From positions 1 to 64,000 of IMG/VR virus record IMGVR_UViG_3300045988_146036: a DNA stretch of 64,000 nt; one strand, given 5' to 3'. Shown here piece by piece: positions 8,770 to 40,713 of this stretch; position 1 is the stretch's first letter; each line of letters begins with the position of its first letter. A model generated the notes under the pieces. It worked only from the letters and a program-made list of their open reading frames with translations, was not told the origin of the DNA and did not search any database. This DNA comes from a virus. Made by a program: the position numbers and the translations under genes.

Positions 8770-9852
8770 TTATTCTTCTTTTAGCAAAAAAGTTGGGGAA
8801 ATCGCTTTAAAGGAAATTCCCTGCTCATAATTTCTGCAAACAATACCTTCACGCTCTTGTGTATCAAGTAATACACTTTTACCACTCGCAAGATTGTTTA
8901 AGGTCTGTAAATCACTTGGCACATTGATACGCTTATAAACTACTGGCACTGTTTTAATGCGAAATTCTTTAAGAAGCTCTTCCATTTTTACTTGTGAAAC
9001 TTTAATGCCGTCAAGAATTAAATTATAAGCATAAAAATCATACCCACTAATCTTATATTTATTAGCTTGGATATTTTGCCCAATAATCTCACCTTGTAAA
9101 ACAACTTTTCTAAAGCCAAAGCAATCTTGAATCTCCTTTAAAGCCTCCTCAATCTGAAAGCGTCTTGCAATTTCCCAATAGGGCGAATTATCTTCCTTAC
9201 GTAGCCAAATATTTCTACTGCAAACCCCAAAAGTGCCGCCGTCTAAAAAGAAAGTTGAACTGCAGCCGTCGATTTTCTCTGTACAAGTTAGCGGAACACT
9301 ATCAGAACGCCATTGTTCAAGCTTATCAGTAATATTTTGCCAGCGTTCTTCATCAGTCTTGCTTGCAATGTAAGTAGGGAACTTTTCATTCTGTACATGG
9401 AATTTTGCATATAAGCGTCTAAACCAACGGAAACGCATTAAAGGCTTCCATAAGAATGTGAATCTTCCTTTTGGGGCAGCAACTGCCATGATTTTATTCT
9501 CTGCTTCAAGTTGCGGGTCAAATTTCGTAATATTCAATACTTTAGTTACATCTTCACCAACAGCGTATTCTTTATTTGGCAAGTAACTTAAAGGCAGAAT
9601 CAAACCTTGTGAAATCTGTTTGCGCAATTTAATAGTCTTAATGCGGTACTTTCTGTCTTTAAGGAACGCAAATTCTGGTCTTGCAGGGAGTACAGAATCT
9701 ACTTCAATATACACTACTTTATCGCCTTGCTGAAAGTTGTCACTCTTACTTACAACACATTCCCAACCTTTTACAGTTGCTTTTAAAATTCTATCTGCAT
9801 TTGGAATAGGCTCTAATTTATCTATAATTTCTACACTTGCTAATTTTCTCAT
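8770..9852 (-). CDS. ATP-dependent RNA/DNA ligase, Rnl5/DraRnl-like (N-terminal OB domain plus nucleotidyltransferase)
   Basis: N-terminus MRKLASVEIIDKLEPIPNADRI (OB-like as in NgrRnl/DraRnl); motif I TEKIDGCS (KxDG); motif IV EGIV; motif V FKAISPTFLLK. Confidence 0.55.
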   Translation of the reverse strand: MRKLASVEIIDKLEPIPNADRILKATVKGWECVVSKSDNFQQGDKVVYIEVDSVLPARPEFAFLKDRKYRIKTIKLRKQISQGLILPLSYLPNKEYAVGEDVTKVLNITKFDPQLEAENKIMAVAAPKGRFTFLWKPLMRFRWFRRLYAKFHVQNEKFPTYIASKTDEERWQNITDKLEQWRSDSVPLTCTEKIDGCSSTFFLDGGTFGVCSRNIWLRKEDNSPYWEIARRFQIEEALKEIQDCFGFRKVVLQGEIIGQNIQANKYKISGYDFYAYNLILDGIKVSQVKMEELLKEFRIKTVPVVYKRINVPSDLQTLNNLASGKSVLLDTQEREGIVCRNYEQGISFKAISPTFLLKEE

Positions 9853-11741
9853 TTAACTACCTCCGCTTCTACTGTTTTTTCATCGTCTGTATCTTCCATA
9901 AAAATTCGTTCTAAAATGCCACCAGATTGGGGATTCGCACCATGAACAACAGTTTGCTCAATACTTCCACCTTTAATTTTTGTTTGTGAAACCATAACTG
10001 GTCGTCCTTTTACTTCGTCTTGCAAATCTTTTAACTTAGTTAAATACCCAAAAGCATCCTGCATTGCCTGTGAAGTAGCCTTTGTAGGTGTTCCACCCAT
10101 AGCTGTTTCAAGCATAAAGGCTTTTTGAGCACGTTCTATTGCTAAATCAGCAATAGCCGTCATTCCCTGTATAACATCTTCTTGTTCCCTGGTATTAAAT
10201 CTACGGAACATTTTATCATATGCACAAATATACCCTGCTTGGTACTCTGTACAGTTTGCTGCCATTACGCATCTATCACAAGAAAGTCTAGGTAAAGCTC
10301 TTGTGGAAAGCTTTTTCTGTCGCTTAACCTTTTTGATACCTTTTAAGATATTGCCATTTTTATCATAAATTGGTTTAATACCTTGTTCTATTAAAGCTTT
10401 TTCAACATCATCTTTATCATATCCAGAAGTTAATAATGCAGGTAGAAGTTCTCCACACTCTTCCCTACTCATTTCAACCTCTAAATACTCTTTTTCTGTA
10501 ATATAGTCCTCACGTTCAAGTGCTATACGCTGCCCCTCTTCTGGATTCTGCAAATTTGACAACTCGTTTCGCATACCGTCAACGTGTTCTTTGAAAGCTT
10601 CTTGCAAAAACTTTATACACTTATCTTTTGTATTATAGTTTGCACCTGTTGCACCAAACATTGCACATAAACCTACAAGGTCGTCAAGCTCATAGTTCTT
10701 GGCTTCTTTAGGCTCGTTTAGAAAAATATAAGCATCATGTAAAATTGTTTCACCCGCTGTTTGAGGAATGTTTGTATCAATTCCTGCTAGTTCTAAGCGT
10801 TCCTGCCAATCTTGCATATCCCCTTCAAACCATGCTGCATCTGGAATAGAGTATCTAGTGTTTGAACGTGCTTCCCAATATTTTTGTGGTCGCATAACAT
10901 TTTTAACGTATTCTTCAAACTTCTTATAGCTAATGGCGTTTGCTTTTATAAGCTCATAAGGAGATTCTATTTCAAGCAACTTCTCCTTTAACCCCAACGC
11001 CTTTAGCTTTTCCATGTATTCCGTTTTCCATTGCTGCTTTTCAAGGTGTTTCATTTGCCCTGCTTCAAAGTAGGTAATTGTACCAAATTGCGCACCTGTC
11101 AAATAAGTAGTAGAATCTGCGGAAAAGAATGGATAGCTCAATAATAGTTTATTGCCTGTAATTGCAAAACCATGAATAGCAGACTTATACCTTTTAGCTA
11201 TTTGGAATAATTGTGAAATGAGATTTTCCCTTTCCCCCATATCCTCAATAGTATGCTTTATCTCCATGTACGAAAATCCAACATATGGATGCTGTTTACA
11301 AAGCTTTTCAAAATGCGATAAATCTTTATCTAAATGATAAAGATAAATAACATTTATTCCTTCTCTTTCTAATGGATAGAAATACTTTTCACGCCAACCT
11401 TCTACAATATCCTCGCCAACAATACTATCAATATCAAGTTCCACGCAGGCAAAGATATAGTCACGATACTCACGTACAAAGTTAACATACTTTACTAAAT
11501 AATCTTCCCACCATTCAATGGTCTTATTATTAAACTCTTTATCATTAAAAAAAATATAAGCACCACTATCAATTAAGACTTTCATTCCTCTATGGGACTT
11601 TAAGCGTTTTACAATTTCATCTAATCCACGTTTACGAATATACTTATAGGAAAGTAGCACATTCTTTGTTACAGAAGATGCTACTTCCCAGTTTTCTTTA
11701 GGCTCAACGCCTGATAATAAAAGCGTAAAATCACCTTTCAT
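9849..11741 (-). CDS. tRNA-guanine transglycosylase superfamily protein, DpdA-like (candidate 7-deazaguanine DNA transglycosylase) with C-terminal extension
   Basis: VLIDSGAY matches the TGT substrate-Asp motif (L/I)(T/I)DSGG(Y/F); Cys cluster SCDRCVMAANC as a candidate Zn site; adjacent to queC. 630 aa is much larger than typical DpdA. Confidence 0.45.
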   Translation of the reverse strand: MKGDFTLLLSGVEPKENWEVASSVTKNVLLSYKYIRKRGLDEIVKRLKSHRGMKVLIDSGAYIFFNDKEFNNKTIEWWEDYLVKYVNFVREYRDYIFACVELDIDSIVGEDIVEGWREKYFYPLEREGINVIYLYHLDKDLSHFEKLCKQHPYVGFSYMEIKHTIEDMGERENLISQLFQIAKRYKSAIHGFAITGNKLLLSYPFFSADSTTYLTGAQFGTITYFEAGQMKHLEKQQWKTEYMEKLKALGLKEKLLEIESPYELIKANAISYKKFEEYVKNVMRPQKYWEARSNTRYSIPDAAWFEGDMQDWQERLELAGIDTNIPQTAGETILHDAYIFLNEPKEAKNYELDDLVGLCAMFGATGANYNTKDKCIKFLQEAFKEHVDGMRNELSNLQNPEEGQRIALEREDYITEKEYLEVEMSREECGELLPALLTSGYDKDDVEKALIEQGIKPIYDKNGNILKGIKKVKRQKKLSTRALPRLSCDRCVMAANCTEYQAGYICAYDKMFRRFNTREQEDVIQGMTAIADLAIERAQKAFMLETAMGGTPTKATSQAMQDAFGYLTKLKDLQDEVKGRPVMVSQTKIKGGSIEQTVVHGANPQSGGILERIFMEDTDDEKTVEAEVVK

Positions 11742-33060: not shown

Positions 33061-33486
33061 CTACGCAATTTTTACAGCGGTGAAAGAAGTGCTTGTTACC
33101 GTTCCTGCAGCTGTCAACTGTACTTGTAGTGAAGCTACATTATTGATAGCTTTGCAAGAAGGTAGAACCGTAATCAAAGTGGTAAAACTTGCAGGGAATG
33201 TAGTAGCTACCACACCTGTCGCAGTAGCACTAGCACCAGGGACTGCTACACCGTTCTTAACCAGTTGCAGGGAAATATCCCCTGCCGCAGTAGGTGTAAC
33301 ATTTGCATTAACAGTGACTAAGTAAGTTCCTGCTTTACGTAAAGTAACTGTATTACTGCCTGCTGTAAATAAAATTCCTTGATTGCAACAACTGTTGCAA
33401 CCACTTACAGCTTTTGTGTCATATACTAAATACCCATCAGCTACCACTGTCTGAGTGACAGAGTTAGTAGCATTTAAATAAGCCAT
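33061..33486 (-). CDS. BclA C-terminal-domain-like (C1q/TNF-like) protein
   Basis: Thr/Val/Ala/Asn-rich beta-rich sequence (VTVNANVTPTAAGDISLQLVKNG...) resembling the Bacillus collagen-like protein BclA C-terminal domain. Confidence 0.4.
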   Translation of the reverse strand: MAYLNATNSVTQTVVADGYLVYDTKAVSGCNSCCNQGILFTAGSNTVTLRKAGTYLVTVNANVTPTAAGDISLQLVKNGVAVPGASATATGVVATTFPASFTTLITVLPSCKAINNVASLQVQLTAAGTVTSTSFTAVKIA

Positions 33487-33534: not shown

Positions 33535-34242
33535 TTAAACACAACCACAAACATTATTTGCTGCGCTCTGATAAGGAGAGCAGGTTATAAATGCAGGTTG
33601 TGGGAAAGGTCTAAGTGTACCAATTAAGGCTGCACTTTGAGCTTGTTGACTCAGCTGGAAATTAGCAGTCTGCAATTCTCTATCTCTGTCAGCAAGTTTA
33701 TCACGCAGTTCTTGAACGGTATTAGCTACCATTACTGCACGTGTCTTTTCACCATCCGCATTAATTGCGTTCACAATTTCACAAGTATTCTTATAGTTTT
33801 CAGCTCTTACAGAATCAATGTTTCTATTGGTTTCACAACCTACATTTGCGATACCTTTCTGAGTTTCACAGCAGCATTGCTGTGCGGCAAAGCGATTTTC
33901 TGCAATTTGATTACCTAATTGATAACCATTAGACATTAAATCACGTTGTACTCCATTGAAACCGTTTAACATAGTTGTGTTCTGTGCATAAAAACCATCA
34001 CACAAACCATTTTGAATACCTGCTATACCTCTTTGAATAGATTGGTTGTCAAAACCAGATTGCAAGTCGCTTCTAGTTAAGGCTTCGTTTAAACCCCTGT
34101 TATTTCCGAAACCATTTCCCCAACCGCCCATTAAGGCAAAAATAACAATAATCCACATGAACCACATACCACAACCATTACCCCAATCGTTGTCATATCC
34201 ATGATTCATATTCATTACAGGAACAACACCAGTACCTTCCAT
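33535..34242 (-). CDS. membrane-anchored Gly/Asn-rich coiled-coil protein (235 aa)
   Basis: TM helix WFMWIIVIFALMGGW then GWGNGFGNNRG low-complexity and coiled coil. Confidence 0.35.
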   Translation of the reverse strand: MEGTGVVPVMNMNHGYDNDWGNGCGMWFMWIIVIFALMGGWGNGFGNNRGLNEALTRSDLQSGFDNQSIQRGIAGIQNGLCDGFYAQNTTMLNGFNGVQRDLMSNGYQLGNQIAENRFAAQQCCCETQKGIANVGCETNRNIDSVRAENYKNTCEIVNAINADGEKTRAVMVANTVQELRDKLADRDRELQTANFQLSQQAQSAALIGTLRPFPQPAFITCSPYQSAANNVCGCV

Positions 34243-34300: not shown

Positions 34301-34528
34301 CTAAAATCTTAGGTTAAATTGTGAAAGAAAATTATTTAAATCATTATCGCTCATACCTTTTGTATGTGCAATGTTTCTAACTATTTGTTGCAGCTGTTCG
34401 GGACTTTTCCCCTGCCCCATTTGCATAGCTTGGTTAAATAGGGGATTGCCACCAAACATTTGTTGCATTAACTGCATGGGATTTTGTGACCCCTGTACCA
34501 TTCCCATTAACTGCATCGGATTCATCAT
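34301..34528 (-). CDS. Met/Gln-rich low-complexity protein (75 aa)
   Basis: Repeated NPMQLM motifs. Confidence 0.35.
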   Translation of the reverse strand: MMNPMQLMGMVQGSQNPMQLMQQMFGGNPLFNQAMQMGQGKSPEQLQQIVRNIAHTKGMSDNDLNNFLSQFNLRF

Positions 34529-34998: not shown

Positions 34999-35289
34999 TT
35001 AACAGTCTGATAATACAATGTTAACTAATTTTTTAATATCGTCTGGTAATATTTCAAAATCTCGTTGCATCGTAGAAAGCATTTCATGTCTTGCAAAACT
35101 AAGATAATTATTAAGGGAGTCAAAGGACATTCCTACATCCTCTGCTATATCATAAATACTTTGTTCTTCAATGTACCTCAAATACAGTACCCTTTCAACA
35201 CGTTTATGTAAACCAAGTGCAGGTATTAAAGGTTTAAGTACATTCTTTGACATTTTATTTAATCTATTTGCAAAATTTCTTCCATCCAT
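34999..35289 (-). CDS. sigma-70 region-4-like transcriptional regulator (ArpU/late-regulator-like)
   Basis: LYLRYIEEQSIYDIAEDVGMS resembles the sigma region 4 HTH. Confidence 0.35.
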   Translation of the reverse strand: MDGRNFANRLNKMSKNVLKPLIPALGLHKRVERVLYLRYIEEQSIYDIAEDVGMSFDSLNNYLSFARHEMLSTMQRDFEILPDDIKKLVNIVLSDC

Positions 35290-35307: not shown

Positions 35308-35808
35308 TTATATATTTAATACTATAGCTTCAATTTCTTCTTTATTCTGCGCTGCTTCAACCTGTTCTCTTGCCTTGCGGTACGCCATATGCAAAGCATT
35401 GCTACGCACAGCAACAGTAGCAATAACCATGCGCAAGTCATTGGCAGTAACCTTTGTGTCTTGATTGTCTGCTGTCGTCCAGTCAATAGACGCATCAGTG
35501 CCTTGCAAAGACAAGGCAATGATGGCTGCGTTAATTCTATCTCTCGCTTTATCGTCATAGTCAAAGCTATGTCCACTGTATTCAATAGGCTCTGCCTCTG
35601 CTTTATCACGCTGATATTTAAGCTCTGCAATCTTACGTTGCTTAATCACTTCTAAGGGTTCTTCCTCATGCGTAACAGTAACATTTAATTCTGCCAAGGC
35701 TTCCTCGGAGATAGAAAGAGGTATAAAGATACCTTCCTGCCCTAAGGCTTCTGAAAGTAGGTAAATGTTAGAATAGGTTTGGTCTTTATATTTATATTTT
35801 GTTTGCAT
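35308..35808 (-). CDS. hypothetical protein (166 aa)
   Basis: ORF. Confidence 0.35.
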   Translation of the reverse strand: MQTKYKYKDQTYSNIYLLSEALGQEGIFIPLSISEEALAELNVTVTHEEEPLEVIKQRKIAELKYQRDKAEAEPIEYSGHSFDYDDKARDRINAAIIALSLQGTDASIDWTTADNQDTKVTANDLRMVIATVAVRSNALHMAYRKAREQVEAAQNKEEIEAIVLNI

Positions 35809-35824: not shown

Positions 35825-36229
35825 TTAATAATCTTCAACTGTGGGCTTCATGTCATTTATTGCTTTACCCCATGAAAAAGTTACACCATCTGTTGTATAA
35901 TAACAGTCAAAATGCAATGTATAGGTTTTATTTGGGGTTACACCTACAATAGAATCAATATCTACGTGGTTTATATTTTCAAGCATCTCACATTCTGAAA
36001 TGCCTTCACCCCAAATTTCATTATTTATTGTATTTTTAATCTTTGCATAAAAACTTGAATAATCTTCGGCATCTTCAGCATAGTCAACTACTGCAACCAC
36101 TTTGATTCTTTTAATCCCCTTTGGAACAGTAAAAGCTATTGTTTTATCATCTGCTTCCCTATAAGTCCAATGCTTGCTACCATCTTCAACCTTTACTCCG
36201 CTATTCATCATCATTCTATTAAGTCCCAT
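35825..36229 (-). CDS. hypothetical structural protein (134 aa)
   Basis: ORF in the fibre module. Confidence 0.35.
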   Translation of the reverse strand: MGLNRMMMNSGVKVEDGSKHWTYREADDKTIAFTVPKGIKRIKVVAVVDYAEDAEDYSSFYAKIKNTINNEIWGEGISECEMLENINHVDIDSIVGVTPNKTYTLHFDCYYTTDGVTFSWGKAINDMKPTVEDY

Positions 36230-36241
36230 TATGCAGCACCT

Positions 36242-37609
36242 CTACGATAACTTACTAGCTTGCACAATGCTAGTAACATTGCCATCTTCATCTTTCATCA
36301 TCAAAATGTTTAATAACAGACCTGCACTTGTAATGGCCAGGTCGGATGCTGAACCAATGTATTTAATAGTACCAGCGTCGGTGATAGTCAAAGTGTAAGC
36401 ACCAGAGGATTTGATGAACGCCGTGAACACAGTGGATTCATCAAATTCTAAATTAGCCAAAAAGGTTTTAAGGCTAAGGTTAAAATCTCCCGTTGCTATA
36501 TAATGCATTAGGGATATTGAGGGAATATCGCCCTTACCGCGTTTCGTATGAGAAAGGTATTTTTCATATCCCAACTTTACTTCCTCAAAGTCTTGTAGAG
36601 AAACCCATGAGTTACTAAAAAGCCTGTTAGCATAAACTTTAGAAATTTCATTACCCTTACCATCACTCGTTGCTGCAGCCGCCATGCCAGAATAAAATTT
36701 AGCATTGATTGACCCTACTTCCTGTGAGCCTTGCCGCCAATTTATTGTAGTAAGTTCACCATTTAAAGAAAAACCAGAAAAAATATCAGTCCCGACCTTA
36801 TCTAGCAACGCACTATAGATAGCTTTATTTTGGACAGGGTTTGTGCTTGTACCACTTAATTCAGTATCAACAATTACACTATTAACATCAATCGTTACAT
36901 TGCCATTTTCATCCGCAACAGAATTATTTATGGAACGTACTATATTTTTGTTATTCCATTTAAGTAGTCCAACGGGACTGCCTAAAAGAGTTGCTGAATG
37001 TGTAGAATCTGCTGCTTTTAATAAAAATTGTCCTGTGTTTTCTGCATAATTACCACCACAAAGTTGAAGATTTGCACCACTATCAACTGCGTTACCTCCT
37101 GTTAAGCGCAAGTACGACGTATTAATATTTCTTTTAAGAATGTCTGCCACACTTACGCTGTTTGTGGCACTCTTGCCCATACCGTCTGTTATTCCGTACC
37201 CTGCTAAAGTAGTAGCTGTATAAGACATTTGCTGCCATTTAGACCACGTGCCTTGCACACCGTCCGAAATATAATAACTTCTTCTCCAACAGTTATTATA
37301 TTCTAGATTATTGGTGCTTCTATTATATTCCCGCACTTCTTGATAAACTATCTCACCTTTACCCCATACCATTAAGCCAAAAGCATAATTAGTAGGGCAA
37401 TTTAAAATAGTTTCAGCGCGAGAATTAATGTTACAGCAGTAGAACCCCTCATCCTTAAAATTATTTAAGTCTGAGGCTTCCGCTATCTCCAAGGATTTGT
37501 TAAATTTAGTATCTAGTTTCTCCAGTGTTGCTGTATTATCTTCATTTAAAAACTGTGGGACTTGTGTATCAATTTCTTCATCACCTGTCCAGTTATGAAA
37601 GCTTGCCAT
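36242..37609 (-). CDS. tail fibre / receptor-binding-like protein (455 aa)
   Basis: Ser/Thr/Asn/Gly-rich beta-rich protein; start abuts the radical-SAM stop. Confidence 0.4.
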   Translation of the reverse strand: MASFHNWTGDEEIDTQVPQFLNEDNTATLEKLDTKFNKSLEIAEASDLNNFKDEGFYCCNINSRAETILNCPTNYAFGLMVWGKGEIVYQEVREYNRSTNNLEYNNCWRRSYYISDGVQGTWSKWQQMSYTATTLAGYGITDGMGKSATNSVSVADILKRNINTSYLRLTGGNAVDSGANLQLCGGNYAENTGQFLLKAADSTHSATLLGSPVGLLKWNNKNIVRSINNSVADENGNVTIDVNSVIVDTELSGTSTNPVQNKAIYSALLDKVGTDIFSGFSLNGELTTINWRQGSQEVGSINAKFYSGMAAAATSDGKGNEISKVYANRLFSNSWVSLQDFEEVKLGYEKYLSHTKRGKGDIPSISLMHYIATGDFNLSLKTFLANLEFDESTVFTAFIKSSGAYTLTITDAGTIKYIGSASDLAITSAGLLLNILMMKDEDGNVTSIVQASKLS

Positions 37610-38833
37610 TTACATTCCACCTTCCATTCTCCAAAACTCATCAGCACATTCCTGCACCGCGCTAAAAAACTCCCTTATATAATCGCATTGTACAAATTCT
37701 TCTTTGTTTTCTTTCTTATAGGCTATTGGACAAATTGACCTGCATAAAGGTAGACATTCACATTCTGCGCAATTTCGTGGCAATAACTTTAACCACTCCA
37801 TTTCATGTGCTTTTAATATATCTGAATAATCATCTTTAATATTTGCAACCACTTTATTATCATTGTGGCATCTTATTATATTACCTGCAAAATCTATAGA
37901 TAAAGAGATACGTCCAGGTGCGCAAGGTGGAAATGGGGAAAGCATAAAACTTTCTTTAGAGAAGTAAGTCCCTCTTCTAAGTTTAGTTTCAAACCACCTA
38001 TGTACATTTGAATCCCTTGTTTCTTTATAATATTCAAATAAATCTTTTACTGCTTTTCTTACTTCGCCCTTCTCAAAAGCGTATAAATCTTTTGGTATAT
38101 CCCATAGTACATTTATAAAACCTAGAGTTACCTCAGTATTGGGGAATTTTGACTCCAAGTATTTAAAAGCAGTTACCATATCACAATTTAAGGCATTGTA
38201 TACCCCATTTACCGTTCTTTTTTCTGCCAACAAAAAAGCTTCTATATTTCTCTCTAGCGGCATGGCGTTTCTTGCAGCTAGAGGGTTGGGTGCATCATAA
38301 CTCATAATTACCCATATATTATGTTTGTTACAAAAGTCTACAATGGAATTTGAAAGTAATAGACCATTGGTGAAAATGCGATAAGAAATATTTCTCATAC
38401 CCATTTTTTCAAACTCTTCTATAAGTTTCTTTATTGTAGTCCAATAAAGTAAAGGTTCACCACCCCAAAAATAGAGCCTACCTCCACCTGCTTTATCCCA
38501 TTTTACTATAAAGTCTAGTACATCCTTGCTTAACTCAGTAGTGGGAAAAGCAACATCACATTTAATAGGAGTTTGTGTACAATGTCTGCAAGACATATTA
38601 CATGCACTGCCTAGCATCAGATAAAGTGCTTTTACACCTTCCGTGGATACCGAATCCCCTTCACAGTGAATAACATCCCCATTAACAAATTTGTCACCCT
38701 CTTGAATGTCGACCCCTGTAATATCCACATAATCTCCATCCCCAACTAAATCTTTAAACTCTTTTAATGTATTATTTGTTATAAATTTTGCCACCAATAC
38801 ATCATCTATTAATTTTCCAATTTGTAATACCAT
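37610..38833 (-). CDS. radical SAM / SPASM-domain maturase
   Basis: CNMSCRHC (CxxxCxxC) near the N-terminal third; C-terminal SPASM-type cluster NCAECECLPLCRSICP. Confidence 0.6.
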   Translation of the reverse strand: MVLQIGKLIDDVLVAKFITNNTLKEFKDLVGDGDYVDITGVDIQEGDKFVNGDVIHCEGDSVSTEGVKALYLMLGSACNMSCRHCTQTPIKCDVAFPTTELSKDVLDFIVKWDKAGGGRLYFWGGEPLLYWTTIKKLIEEFEKMGMRNISYRIFTNGLLLSNSIVDFCNKHNIWVIMSYDAPNPLAARNAMPLERNIEAFLLAEKRTVNGVYNALNCDMVTAFKYLESKFPNTEVTLGFINVLWDIPKDLYAFEKGEVRKAVKDLFEYYKETRDSNVHRWFETKLRRGTYFSKESFMLSPFPPCAPGRISLSIDFAGNIIRCHNDNKVVANIKDDYSDILKAHEMEWLKLLPRNCAECECLPLCRSICPIAYKKENKEEFVQCDYIREFFSAVQECADEFWRMEGGM

Positions 38834-39303
38834 AATGCTACCGCTCCTGCACTTCCCGCTAAACCAATACCGCCACCTGCACCTGCGCTTCCAACAGTGA
38901 TTTGTATCCTATCCCCTTCCTTAACAGGAATGGTGACAATATTAATGCCACCACTACCTCCTGATACAGGGTAGACAACTTTGTCCGTGTTTGAACAGCC
39001 TCCACCACTACCATAAACACCTTTAGTAACTTCGGGACGAACATCGTATCCTTTAGTACCTGCCACTGAATAATCACCGTCTACACCTTCTGGAACGCCA
39101 CCTTTACCAACTTGCTTTTCCTCAGTTTCGGTGTAGCTTCGCCTATTAGCATATGTACAAACTCTTTTATACTTTGCACCACCGCCCCCAGATGCAATGA
39201 TTACATCTGCTCCATTTAAAGAAACTTTAGAAGTTCCACCATCTGTTCCTTTAGCGTCTGCAATAACTTGTGTATGGGGGTATTGAATCCATCTTGTACT
39301 CAT
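38809..39303 (-). CDS. glycine-rich tail-fibre-associated protein (164 aa)
   Basis: SGGGGA, GSGGGC, VGSAGAGGGIG; paralogous segment VTIPVKEGDRIQITVGSAGAGGG; ATGA overlap with the upstream gene. Confidence 0.45.
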   Translation of the reverse strand: MSTRWIQYPHTQVIADAKGTDGGTSKVSLNGADVIIASGGGGAKYKRVCTYANRRSYTETEEKQVGKGGVPEGVDGDYSVAGTKGYDVRPEVTKGVYGSGGGCSNTDKVVYPVSGGSGGINIVTIPVKEGDRIQITVGSAGAGGGIGLAGSAGAVALWYYKLEN

Positions 39304-40106
39304 GCTCCTTCACCTCCGCTACCTTCTCCTTGGCTCGGGCCGCTATCATCGGTATCTTCTTTAGGAGTGTATCCATATCCTGCACCACCGCCGCCGCCAC
39401 CAACAGTCACGATGGTAATGTTTTCCACACCTTTAGGAACTGTGAAATCATAAGTACCTGGACTTGAATATTGGACAAATTGCTGTCCAGACATTAACAA
39501 ATCATTGTTCCAAGCATAACAAACAGTTAAATGGCTATCTTTACTAGAGCCTTGCCCCAAAAGCCAAAGCTCCATTCGATGCGTTCCTGCGTCTAATTCA
39601 ATGTCCCCATCATATAAAGTTTTCCAATTAATGCCTGCACTGCGCCTGAAAGTTTTCTTAACAAGCAAGTTTCCATCTAAATTTATCCATATATCACTAC
39701 GTTGCCACTTATCAGAGCTGTATCCCCAACCAGTTTGTCCATAATTAACCATACTTTTATAATGAAACTTGGTTCTTCTTGGTGCTACAAAATAAAAAGT
39801 ATCATATTTAGCTGTGCGCTCACCACTACCACCAAATTCTATCTTTACAGTCTTATCAAAATTTACGCCTTGGATGCCTTGCACACTTTGCTCAACCACT
39901 CTATAAGACATTCCGTCAATTTCTACCCAAAGTTGTGTTCCATACAAATCATCTGTAACACCTAGAGGTGCATACACAGTTGAACCATTTGCTAATTTAA
40001 TTGGTAAAGACCTTCCTGTATAGCTACAAGTAGGTGTATCATATAAAGGAACTATTTTTTTATTATTACTGCTTTGTATGTTTAAAACATGCTCTGTTAC
40101 ACCCAT
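39300..40106 (-). CDS. glycine-rich tail fibre protein (268 aa)
   Basis: C-terminus FTVPKGVENITIVTVGGGGGGAGYGY, paralogous to the 164-aa protein. Confidence 0.45.
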   Translation of the reverse strand: MGVTEHVLNIQSSNNKKIVPLYDTPTCSYTGRSLPIKLANGSTVYAPLGVTDDLYGTQLWVEIDGMSYRVVEQSVQGIQGVNFDKTVKIEFGGSGERTAKYDTFYFVAPRRTKFHYKSMVNYGQTGWGYSSDKWQRSDIWINLDGNLLVKKTFRRSAGINWKTLYDGDIELDAGTHRMELWLLGQGSSKDSHLTVCYAWNNDLLMSGQQFVQYSSPGTYDFTVPKGVENITIVTVGGGGGGAGYGYTPKEDTDDSGPSQGEGSGGEGA

Positions 40107-40107
40107 A

Positions 40108-40713
40108 TTATTTCACCCACATTTTCGTACCATTAGGAAATACTATTTGCCCGCTTTCATTAAAACGTGCTAAATTACTTGGCAAAATGGTATCTGGGAT
40201 AAGTGCTTTATCATTCAATATAGGTATCTCTTCCCTACCATAACCTATATTTAAAATACCATTAGGTATTTTACCATCTGCGTTCACCATCACAATCTGC
40301 CCTGCCTTAACCCCAGTATCAATAAGGCTTGTTGCTATCTTATCATTATCCCCTGTCATTACCAGTTGCCCATTCTGTGTCCCTGTATACATTAGGCTCA
40401 TCTTAATCTTATTTGTGGCAACATCTATTATATCGTCCACCCTACTAAGAGGAATATGAAATGTATCCACATACTCCTTATTAACAAGTGTTAATGTTAA
40501 GTCTGCTATCCTTATCCATAAATTATACTCCACATTAGATAAGATATAAAGACTCATTGTATCTGTTCTAAAACAAGGCTGCCCCAAAACTAAATTATCT
40601 TGGGGAAAACTTGTACCACTATGCTGTGACTGCACACTTTCAAAATTCTTATTTATAGGTTCTAAAGAATTTGCAAGTGTTTCAGTTTCTTTTATTTTTC
40701 TTAATTTCTGCAT
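40108..40713 (-). CDS. tail/baseplate-associated protein (201 aa)
   Basis: Position within the tail module. Confidence 0.35.
   Translation of the reverse strand: MQKLRKIKETETLANSLEPINKNFESVQSQHSGTSFPQDNLVLGQPCFRTDTMSLYILSNVEYNLWIRIADLTLTLVNKEYVDTFHIPLSRVDDIIDVATNKIKMSLMYTGTQNGQLVMTGDNDKIATSLIDTGVKAGQIVMVNADGKIPNGILNIGYGREEIPILNDKALIPDTILPSNLARFNESGQIVFPNGTKMWVK

Follow-up and report, generated by a model that had tools for sequence, protein, structure and literature searches.

The established targets of maturases of the radical S-adenosylmethionine (SAM) class that carry a SPASM domain are peptide natural products and, among cellular proteins, a small number such as sulfatases and QHNDH. Here we consider the gene for such an enzyme, 407 amino acids (aa) long, which lies among the tail-fibre genes of a virus (IMG/VR record IMGVR_UViG_3300045988_146036, positions 1 to 64,000; the whole of this 64,000-nucleotide stretch is referred to as the window), together with a short repeat of the type [S/C]-x-x-[E/D] that ends a 268-aa fibre protein encoded upstream of it. 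Enzyme and tail show a strict, clade-matched co-occurrence, and we think it probable, if by no means assured, that the tail of the 268-aa protein is the substrate of the enzyme. If this is true, a virion receptor-binding protein as substrate would represent a new use of radical-SAM/SPASM chemistry.

Enzymes of the PapB/QhpD type act on short repeated motifs, in which they link a donor residue to the carbon beside the carboxylate of an Asp or Glu a few residues towards the C-terminus, or of the C-terminal residue (PMC12373016). The Cys-type tails found beside relatives of the window enzyme, with the motifs CGSE, CGGE, CSVD and CGAE, fit this linking logic. However, PapB substrates carry repeated Cys-x3-Asp, whereas the candidate in the window is the C-terminus of a virion fibre protein with Ser-x2-Glu, a spacing of x2 rather than x3 and no cysteine. 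QhpD modifies a protein and not a leader-dependent peptide. The closest solved fold is that of anSME, which shares with the phage enzyme the lack of a recognition element (RRE) for peptides that are made on ribosomes and modified after translation (RiPPs), acts on a full-length protein and takes Ser or Cys, in parallel with the Ser-type and Cys-type tails. The difference is that here there is no sulfatase and no (C/S)xPxR motif, and that the SPASM region has seven conserved cysteines where anSME has eight cluster ligands. With seven rather than eight, one coordination site of auxiliary cluster I would be open, as in CteB.

By sequence profile the best matches in the PDB are TigE and CteB, both of them solved RiPP radical-SAM/SPASM enzymes. 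Unlike CteB, the phage enzymes start at the CteB core (residue 94) and have no N-terminal RRE. TigE works on the repeated motif TIGSVS. The cyclopropyl synthases of the TigE family have a Gly-Tyr-Trp motif, from which auxiliary cluster I receives a tyrosyl ligand (PMC10878394). No GYW motif is present in the 21 family members compared here (the window protein and 20 homologues), and the window tail contains neither Val nor Ile.

Fibre domains of the Gly_rich_2 family (PF21722) resemble the proteins encoded here in that a Gly-rich distal domain, probably the receptor-binding tip, forms a small polypeptide of its own that is attached to the fibre end; a possible parallel is offered by the polyglycine-rich gp38 adhesins of T2/S16-type phages. 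In contrast to these, the domain is broken here after profile position ~43 into two or three pieces, each upstream piece ends in [S/C]xxE, and the radical-SAM gene lies between the pieces or after them. The features concerned are as follows.

39300-40106, minus strand: 268-aa fibre protein (ORF, open reading frame, list)
39303-39344, minus strand: C-terminal tail SGPSQGEGSGGEGA, residues 255-268 of the 268-aa protein, with two S-x-x-E copies; proposed modification site
38809-39303, minus strand: 164-aa Gly-rich protein (ORF list)
37610-38833, minus strand: 407-aa radical-SAM/SPASM enzyme, proposed fibre-tail maturase (Pfam, NCBIfam, PHROG, AlphaFold2, Foldseek)
38639-38833, minus strand: N-terminal extension of the enzyme, residues 1-65, predicted as a small beta-rich domain with one helix (AlphaFold2 model)
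36242-37609, minus strand: 455-aa fibre protein 3′ of the enzyme gene, a cassette member in the window's lineage only

Class and distribution of the enzyme

The 407-aa protein is a genuine radical-SAM/SPASM enzyme. Its CX3CX2C motif, CNMSCRHC (residues 78-85; 38579-38602, minus strand), which binds the radical-SAM [4Fe-4S] cluster, is found in no other protein of the window, and C78, C82 and C85 are invariant across a 21-sequence family alignment. Both Pfam Radical_SAM PF04055 (35.4 bits against a cut-off of 29.5) and NCBIfam SPASM TIGR04085 (31.2 bits against 27, residues 304-378) are matched over their cut-offs, and residues 68-394 match phrog_1802, a group of phage radical-SAM domain proteins (E 2e-31, 110.5 bits). 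The seven-Cys SPASM motif Cx9-15Gx4C ... Cx2Cx5Cx3C ... C serves two auxiliary [4Fe-4S] clusters. On proper alignment it is present in full (C304-x12-G317-x4-C322 ... C355-x2-C358-x5-C364-x3-C368 ... C383; residues 304-383, 37685-37924, minus strand), each of the seven cysteines being invariant or at least 90% conserved in the same alignment. An initial annotation, made from the letters alone, had given this class, the cysteine cluster, the coordinates and lengths of the 268-, 164-, 407- and 455-aa ORFs, and a location of the enzyme gene in the tail module; all of this is borne out, the four ORFs being on the minus strand and the module including genes for a 1603-aa tape measure protein, a 1004-aa Phage-tail_3 protein and a DUF4376 fibre protein. 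The same annotation had the enzyme gene overlapping both of its neighbours, which is correct for the start (25 nt within the 164-aa ORF) but not for the stop, whose TAA only abuts the ATG of the 455-aa ORF. The start of the 164-aa ORF in turn overlaps the stop of the 268-aa ORF (ATGA).

An AlphaFold2 model built on the family alignment has a mean predicted local distance difference test score (pLDDT) of 91, with an alternating strand-helix core above 90, in keeping with the partial TIM barrel that marks the superfamily. Its nearest folds in Foldseek are anSMEcpe at the top (E 8.7e-15, TM-score 0.59-0.66), followed by CteB, ChlB, TigE and SuiB, while in the PDB sequence-profile search TigE comes first (E 7.6e-33), then CteB (3.3e-28) and anSME (5e-17). 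These best sequence and fold matches support the view that the enzyme belongs to the peptide- or protein-modifying branch of the class. The family search proposed in the initial annotation succeeds at the level of class and reaches no subfamily: the best full-length match is the NCBIfam PapB-type ranthipeptide maturase NF047865 (E 1.6e-18, 67 bits against a cut-off of 340); SCIFF/CteB TIGR03974 scores 61 bits against 425, the QhpD family 52 against 453 and anSME TIGR03942 44.7 against 349.45. The first 65 residues are modelled at pLDDT ~88 as strands 3-9, 12-19, 34-37, 48-50 and 53-55 with a helix at 23-30; this extension is limited to the window's lineage (homologues of at least 60% identity) and does not show the three-helix pattern of an RRE.

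Relatives of the enzyme are encoded by 481 IMG/VR stretches, and a protein search returned 98 homologue clusters; the names that homologues bear in the databases are uninformative. At 36-54% identity relatives occur in fibre modules of sipho-, myo- and P2-like tails, where they adjoin Gly_rich_2 and DUF4376 proteins. L001, for example, has a contractile tail with Sheath_initiator and wedge genes, L004 and L009 are P2-like prophages with Baseplate_J and Tail_P2_I, and L113 and L295 have siphovirus-like modules; prophage copies are also found in Succiniclasticum and Phascolarctobacterium assemblies. The best tblastn identity to cultured phages is 27%. Many phages that are not related to one another thus keep the enzyme as part of a tail-fibre cassette. 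Because it appears to be of the peptide- or protein-modifying branch and is conserved in fibre cassettes, sequence comparison supports a fibre protein as the best candidate for its substrate. The initial annotation had proposed radical modification of a phage fibre protein, and comparative genomics backs that core idea, although the likely substrate has moved to the tail of the 268-aa protein.

Strict co-occurrence of the enzyme with a C-terminal [S/C]xxE tail

The tail peptide of the 268-aa protein (YTPKEDTDDSGPSQGEGSGGEGA) ends SQGEGSGGEGA at the stop codon, that is, SQGE-G-SGGE-GA, and lies 467 nt upstream of the enzyme start. Its carrier is the only one of the 132 minus-strand ORFs of the window with two [SC]xxE in the last 14 residues, and the 164-aa protein has no such tail. 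The tails at related loci, each given up to the stop codon, are:

L004: ...STGSGGEGSGGEGG
L010: ...SSGEGSSGEGGSGGEGSGGEG
L009 and L092: ...SAGEGSGGEGN
L012: ...EGSSGEGSGGEGSGGE
L011: ...SQGEGSFSEGEGGGF
L294: ...GSGGSGGEGSGGEGADSGGDGGHGGGGGDF
L295: ...SYQSGGEG
L107, Cys version: ...SSCGSEGGCGGGEA
L113, Cys version: ...SCSVDSSGCGGEGG
L008, Cys version: ...GCGAEGCGGESSS

At least one [S/C]-x-x-[E/D] is present in each of the 20 distinct tails, and most hold two or more copies if [S/C]-x-x-x-[E/D] is counted in L107/L108; the usual number is two to four, over a repeat of 10-25 residues. The last Glu is mostly 0-4 residues off the C-terminus, and an aromatic residue stands 2-12 positions upstream in 12 of 14 tails, a 13th (L008) having a Tyr near its Cys copies. 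In L107, L113 and L008 the motif takes the form Cys-x2/3-Glu/Asp. The carriers range from 55 to 672 aa and have unrelated N-terminal domains, which argues that the tail itself is the common element. At one end of this range, free-standing ORFs of 55-69 aa directly before the enzyme gene bear the tail (L009, L010, L092 and L293, the piece in L293 being 55 aa); at the other, it ends large fibre-type proteins of 171-672 aa, as in the window and in L004, L008, L011, L012, L294 and L295. In L004, L107, L113, L011 and L012 a Gly_rich_2 piece is absent and the tail ends Ig-like or other fibre proteins; what constantly accompanies the enzyme is therefore the tail and not the Gly-rich fold.

The initial annotation had called for a survey of the co-occurrence of the enzyme with Gly-rich fibre genes; the one made here concerns the tail. 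The proposed class, a fibre-tail maturase with its tailed fibre protein, is defined by a tail-module protein with at least one [S/C]-x-x-[E/D] within ~25 residues of its C-terminus that is encoded no more than 1.5 kb upstream of the enzyme, an arrangement that is also that of the window. When the enzymes were clustered at 80% identity into 11 lineages (36-100% identity), a tail ORF was found to end within 1.5 kb upstream of the enzyme gene in all 11. By composition, the tail is present at 34 of 35 loci and the 35th holds a Cys variant. Genes at the upstream position have it in 21 of 108 cases, as against 0 of the 901 other genes of the same loci (Fisher p = 6e-22).

The reverse search leads to the same pairing. 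Scanning all of IMG/VR for EG-x-GGEG-x-stop returned 30 stretches, seven of which end real Gly-rich ORFs in low-GC contigs; all six of the Gly-rich cases with downstream sequence have the enzyme (E ≤1e-150) within 400 nt, as against none of the 23 other stretches. The stop-anchored pattern was cleaner than an earlier degenerate DNA scan for the internal motif, which gave mostly noise from high-GC contigs. Tail and enzyme also co-vary. In a neighbour-joining tree one clade holds the enzymes beside Ser-type tails and has as its sister those of L107 and L113, with Cys-xx-Glu tails. The next branch is that of the four L008 paralogues, and the outgroup consists of enzymes beside (CN)n tails.

L290 represents a natural knockout, in which tail and enzyme are both missing. 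It is syntenic with the window (the 1003-aa tail protein is 72% identical and the 201-aa protein 57%) and encodes a 208-aa homologue of residues 1-205 of the 268-aa protein, without the last ~63 residues. Also missing are the enzyme and the 164-, 455- and 134-aa genes, whose place is taken by other fibre genes. Homologues of 204-212 aa (41-43% identity), which occur in a syntenic phage of this kind, end at about residue 205. The cassette border between the window and L290 falls at residue 205 and not at the tail. Selection acts on the tail peptide: across loci, the Ser codons of the tails are AGC, AGT, TCC and TCG and the Gly codons GGA, GGC and GGT.

A split Gly-rich domain, candidate reactions and competing explanations

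The 268-aa protein consists of an adaptor domain (residues 1-205) followed by what homology identifies as the N-piece of a split Gly_rich_2 domain with the tail (206-268). Residues 206-248 give weak Gly_rich_2 and tail-PHROG matches, the last ~63 residues (YSSPGTYDFTVPKGVENITIVTVGGGGGG...tail) match the free-standing 62-69-aa ORFs of L009, L010 and L092, and the 164-aa protein aligns to the part of intact Gly_rich_2 domains past the break. The arrangement is clearest in L009, where the N-piece ORF covers profile positions 3-43 (25.0 bits), the protein encoded after the enzyme covers positions 41-128 (36.6 bits), and the two when joined give one unbroken match (46.6 bits, E 5.5e-12); the enzyme gene sits inside the split domain with spacers of only 10 and 2 nt. 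The joined pieces of L010 score 29.5 bits. In L293 (6657-8010; enzyme 84% identical) the Gly-rich domain is spread over three consecutive ORFs of 288, 55 and 107 aa, the last two corresponding to the 164-aa protein, and both upstream pieces end SSGEGSGGEG(A/S), the tails being encoded by near-identical 23-nt DNA (GGTAGTGGAGGTGAAGG core). The window has its two pieces side by side (ATGA overlap), with the enzyme gene after them. The window proteins score below the Gly_rich_2 cut-off of 24.3 bits, at 15.5 for the 268-aa protein alone and 14.7 when joined (residues 215-370 to profile positions 2-168), and a single-sequence AlphaFold2 model of the joined pieces is unusable (pLDDT 37); the split-domain reading is therefore carried by the homology of the relatives and by the alignment to intact domains. 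By sequence comparison, then, the two Gly-rich ORFs are the N- and C-pieces of one split Gly_rich_2 domain.

They had first been described as paralogues, which they are not: BLASTP between them gives E = 0.41, with only low-complexity Gly runs aligned, and they align as consecutive parts of one Gly_rich_2-type domain. The TVP-K-G-I-ITVG-GGG segment said to be shared by the two is real, but comprises two strand-plus-Gly-loop motifs that recur in every Gly_rich_2-type domain; as it is also found where no radical-SAM gene is present, the suggestion that it is the substrate is not supported. A frameshift fusion of the 268- and 164-aa ORFs was considered and rejected, as a stop closes the −1 frame three codons ahead of the ATG, a slippery site is lacking, and the stop-start geometry varies between loci (ATGA, TAA+4 nt, TAA+10 nt). 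An intron or intein carrying the radical-SAM ORF was rejected on the 10 and 2 nt of non-coding DNA beside the enzyme gene of L009.

We propose that in infected cells the 407-aa maturase would have as its target the C-terminal tail of the 268-aa protein, acting while fibres assemble or earlier, while the 164-aa protein would supply the rest of the Gly_rich_2 domain as a separate, translationally coupled polypeptide. The enzyme would cleave SAM and abstract a hydrogen from the tail. Given that the tail is the substrate, a PapB/QhpD-type link is possible by analogy, if taken singly unlikely: the Ser oxygen (Cys sulphur in related phages) would be joined to the carbon next to the Glu carboxylate three residues downstream, giving small ether or thioether rings. 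Anaerobic sulfatase-type chemistry, also argued by analogy and on the same condition an equally guarded proposal, would oxidise the Ser or Cys beta-carbon to formylglycine, as anSME does; the nearest fold being anSME, the lack of an RRE and the exchange of Ser for Cys are consistent with this second reaction. Either would change the mass by −2 Da per site, and with its 11-25 residues the tail is a small object for analysis by mass spectrometry. Once modified, it would make the distal receptor-binding tip stiffer, shield it or lock it covalently.

Several observations weigh against this proposal. The loci of the Fisher test are not independent but phylogenetically clustered, representing ~11 independent lineages, and the neighbour-joining tree is without support values. 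The tail gene of the window is separated from the enzyme gene by the 164-aa ORF, and GGAGGTGAAGG, a part of the tail DNA, is at the same time Shine-Dalgarno-like with respect to the gene that follows. The enzyme lies far under every curated maturase cut-off and has no RRE, its profile alignment beginning only at CteB residue 94, and the model of the joined Gly-rich pieces gives no help. The chemistry is put forward by analogy; since the window tail has no Cys, a thioether, the best-precedented reaction, is impossible within it. We know of no direct precedent for a Ser-Glu ether, the nearest case being the Thr-O to Gln C-alpha link of TqqB.

The alternative that survives best, though we consider it rather unlikely, is that the enzyme modifies another part of the fibre or Gly-rich proteins (a Gly C-alpha, or a Cys of the 164-aa piece), or else a small molecule or glycan that decorates the fibre; the tail would then be a flexible linker or an assembly element that shares the exchangeable cassette with the enzyme. 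The cassette moves as a unit, as indicated by the 63-78% identity of its DUF4376 protein, so that co-occurrence could partly be linkage, and both the missing RRE and subfamily assignment and the non-adjacent tail gene of the window are compatible with a different substrate. However, the tail is the only element common to all 11 lineages and is borne by carriers with unrelated N-terminal domains, its type (Ser, Cys or CN) tracks the enzyme clade, and the nearest sequence and fold neighbours all act on peptides or proteins.

It is improbable, in our estimate, that the pair is an ordinary RiPP gene pair carried as a moron, with the short tail ORFs as precursors (a leader and a Gly/Glu/Ser core) of a product (a toxin, a signal or an anti-defence factor) that is released rather than built into the virion. 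The 55-69-aa tail ORFs directly before the enzyme gene in L009, L010, L092 and L293 have the classic precursor-maturase layout, and repeat-motif substrates such as PapA and TigB are typical of SPASM maturases. Yet the same tail ends the large fibre proteins of the window and six other loci listed above, what would be the leader of the short ORF is Gly_rich_2 positions 3-43, with the remainder, 41-128, encoded right after the enzyme gene, and no cassette contains a protease or exporter, the position being always within the fibre module.

Still less credence can be given to the idea that the tail is without a function of its own. It would then reflect, in coding sequence, a strong Shine-Dalgarno or translational-coupling signal, or else a conserved linker for recombination where cassettes meet, and would accompany the enzyme by chance. 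It is true that GGAGGTGA in the tail DNA is an extended Firmicute Shine-Dalgarno core 9 nt before the next ATG, and that the window, L010 and L293 have a stop that overlaps the following start as ATGA. Many versions, however, have GGC GGC GAA GGC or the Ser codons TCC and TCG, which are not Shine-Dalgarno-like, and keep the SGGEG peptide; the 10-25-residue repeat is far longer than a ribosome-binding site, none of the 901 other genes in these densely coupled loci has a tail, and the border with L290 lies at residue 205 rather than at the tail. Finally, a sulfatase-maturating enzyme that activates a phage or host sulfatase against a sulfated receptor or mucin, as the top structural rank of anSMEcpe and one GenBank record so annotating a distant JWF homologue might suggest, is effectively refuted for the window by the TIGR03942 score (44.7 bits against 349), the absence of [CS]x[PA]xR from the minus-strand ORFs of the window and the absence of a sulfatase domain among the Pfam-annotated neighbours at any locus.

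If the tail of the 268-aa protein is indeed modified, the Ser type would need a chemistry new for the enzyme class, either an ether ring from Ser-O to Glu-C-gamma or formylglycine on a virion, and an ether or aldehyde of this kind would add a new reaction to the enzymatic toolbox. Swapping fibre cassettes without the enzyme would probably fail, which bears on the engineering of phage host range. The tail rule, [S/C]xxE repeats at a C-terminus encoded next to the enzyme, is a simple way to find further cases. As far as is known, the enzyme class and its use of protein substrates (anSME, QhpD) are familiar, and the substrate class, the tail rule, the Ser variant and the split-domain arrangement are new. 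No link between such tails and radical-SAM enzymes was found in open-access papers, and a report in a subscription journal is possible. More tentatively, and with the balance in our view somewhat against it, tailed phages might widely mature their receptor-binding fibres by radical-SAM/SPASM crosslinks or oxidations of the RiPP type on C-terminal repeat tails. These are [S/C]xxE here; more distant phages, RSP15 among them, have (CN)n or (CD)n, and their tandem enzymes number one to six. On this reading the Ser-type modification might also join, by covalent bonds, the parts of a Gly-rich adhesin domain whose division into two or three encoded pieces would be deliberate.

Neighbouring genes and distant loci

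Three further genes of the fibre region enter the comparison with other phages:

40108-40713, minus strand: 201-aa proximal fibre protein with N-terminal motif HSGTSFPQDNLVLGQPCFRTD (homology to distant fibre proteins)
35825-36229, minus strand: 134-aa homologue of the domain with which Gly-rich fibre proteins of related cassettes end
35308-35808, minus strand: 166-aa DUF4376 tail-fibre protein, last of the cassette (PF14301, E 5.9e-18)

After the tape measure gene the order of encoded proteins is 1004-aa Phage-tail_3, 148 aa, 304 aa, 201, 268, 164, 407, 455, 134 and the 166-aa DUF4376 protein. The 455-aa protein, which has no Pfam match and no significant match among PDB sequences, is 77% identical to a 373-aa protein of L293; as a partner of the enzyme it is confined to the window's own lineage. 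Over its C-terminal 123-247 aa it shares 47-56% identity with proteins from myovirus contigs in which radical-SAM gene and tail are likewise present. The 134-aa protein is 38-44% identical to the C-termini of 587-598-aa Gly_rich_2 proteins of L001, L013 and L106, and for the DUF4376 protein the identity is 63-78% to proteins encoded on the myovirus contigs L097-L117, where enzyme and tail occur as well. Set against these contigs, then, the cassette proteins (47-56% for the C-terminal domain of the 455-aa protein, 38-44% for the 134-aa protein) match or exceed the identity of the enzyme (40-51%), which argues that the distal fibre cassette is swapped between tail types. The DUF4376 identity, above the enzyme's own, points to a recent exchange of the cassette between siphovirus- and myovirus-type genomes.

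The 201-aa protein has no significant match in the PDB sequence search, and over the N-terminal 73 aa it shares ~40% identity with fibre proteins from distant loci, which have (CN)n tails of their own and are encoded beside radical-SAM genes. At these loci, where the enzymes are 25-31% identical to that of the window, bona fide fibre proteins have C-terminal tails of Cys/Asn or Cys/Asp, such as NCNCNCGDSDE, SDCNCDCNCNCDCGDSDSDGA and DSNCNCNCNCNCGG; they share the N-terminal motif FSGxxFPTxNLxxGMxCxRTD with the 201-aa protein and are followed by one to six radical-SAM genes. What looks like a sister system is found in L114-L169 (e.g. L124:1596-2711, L162:8034-9098 and L142:8869-9066), in which (CN)n, (CD)n or poly-Cys forms the end of fibre proteins or of ORFs of 61-85 aa and a conserved ~295-aa protein (C-terminus ...G.HWF....F.I.K..) is encoded between the tail ORFs and the radical-SAM gene. 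L007:8001-12297 and L008:8001-12297 have four tandem radical-SAM paralogues after a fibre-like protein of 593-672 aa, the one in L008 ending in the Cys-type tail given above, and in L296:3810-10974 a 99-aa Cys/Tyr/Asn-rich ORF whose N-terminus is twin-arginine-like stands amid six radical-SAM genes.

Among published phage genomes, the group phrog_1802 includes ORF045 of Ralstonia RSP15, RP12, gp030 of Achromobacter JWF and the Campylobacter CP220 group, all at identities of 27% or less. In RSP15 and JWF the radical-SAM gene likewise lies in the tail-fibre module, in JWF after a gp36-like fibre gene. In RSP15 (L297, NC_030948: 39516-43426) the side tail fibre ORF048 ends ...SNTNCQCGN and is followed by ORF047, ORF046 and the radical-SAM ORF045; these phages thus differ from the window in having tails of the Cys/Asn type as well as in the low enzyme identity. 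In the open-access literature searched, no function or substrate has been proposed for phage radical-SAM genes of phrog_1802. The proposal made here, if true, would give a function to these so far unexplained genes in the tail modules of RSP15 and JWF, and RSP15 is a cultured, tractable system for the tail hypothesis.

A relative closer to the window, L292 (2327-5598), has the same 268/164/radical-SAM order, then a 64-aa ORF, DUF6273, a 166-aa protein and a 404-aa reverse-transcriptase-like protein (faint RVT_1), which may belong to a diversity-generating retroelement acting on the fibre cassette. Just after the fibre genes of the window are a 96-aa protein with a sub-threshold sigma-70 region 4-like match (34999-35289, minus strand; 24.7 bits against 25.7), kept in L292, and a 75-aa Met/Gln-rich low-complexity ORF (34301-34528, minus strand; MMNPMQLMGMVQGSQNPMQLMQQMFGG...). 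Two more proteins are kept in L292 downstream of the fibre cassette, namely a 235-aa Gly/Asn/Gln-rich protein with a CCC motif and the C-terminus ...NNVCGCV (33535-34242, minus strand; phrog_16490) and a 141-aa protein with a sub-threshold match to the C-terminal, C1q/TNF-like domain of BclA (33061-33486, minus strand; 29.4 bits against 38).

The window has no near relative among 50,697 deposited phage records and contains no tRNA genes. All of its credible genes are on the minus strand, among them those for DNA polymerase, helicases and a UvsX-like recombinase as well as for the portal, the large terminase and the major head protein. Its GC content is 32-39%, and its GC skew, at −0.17 to −0.30, is negative in each 2-kb bin, without a switch point. 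A 630-aa protein (9849-11741, minus strand) matches phrog_887, queuine tRNA-ribosyltransferase (E 2.5e-65), and is of the DpdA/TGT type, which phages use in 7-deazaguanine DNA modification.

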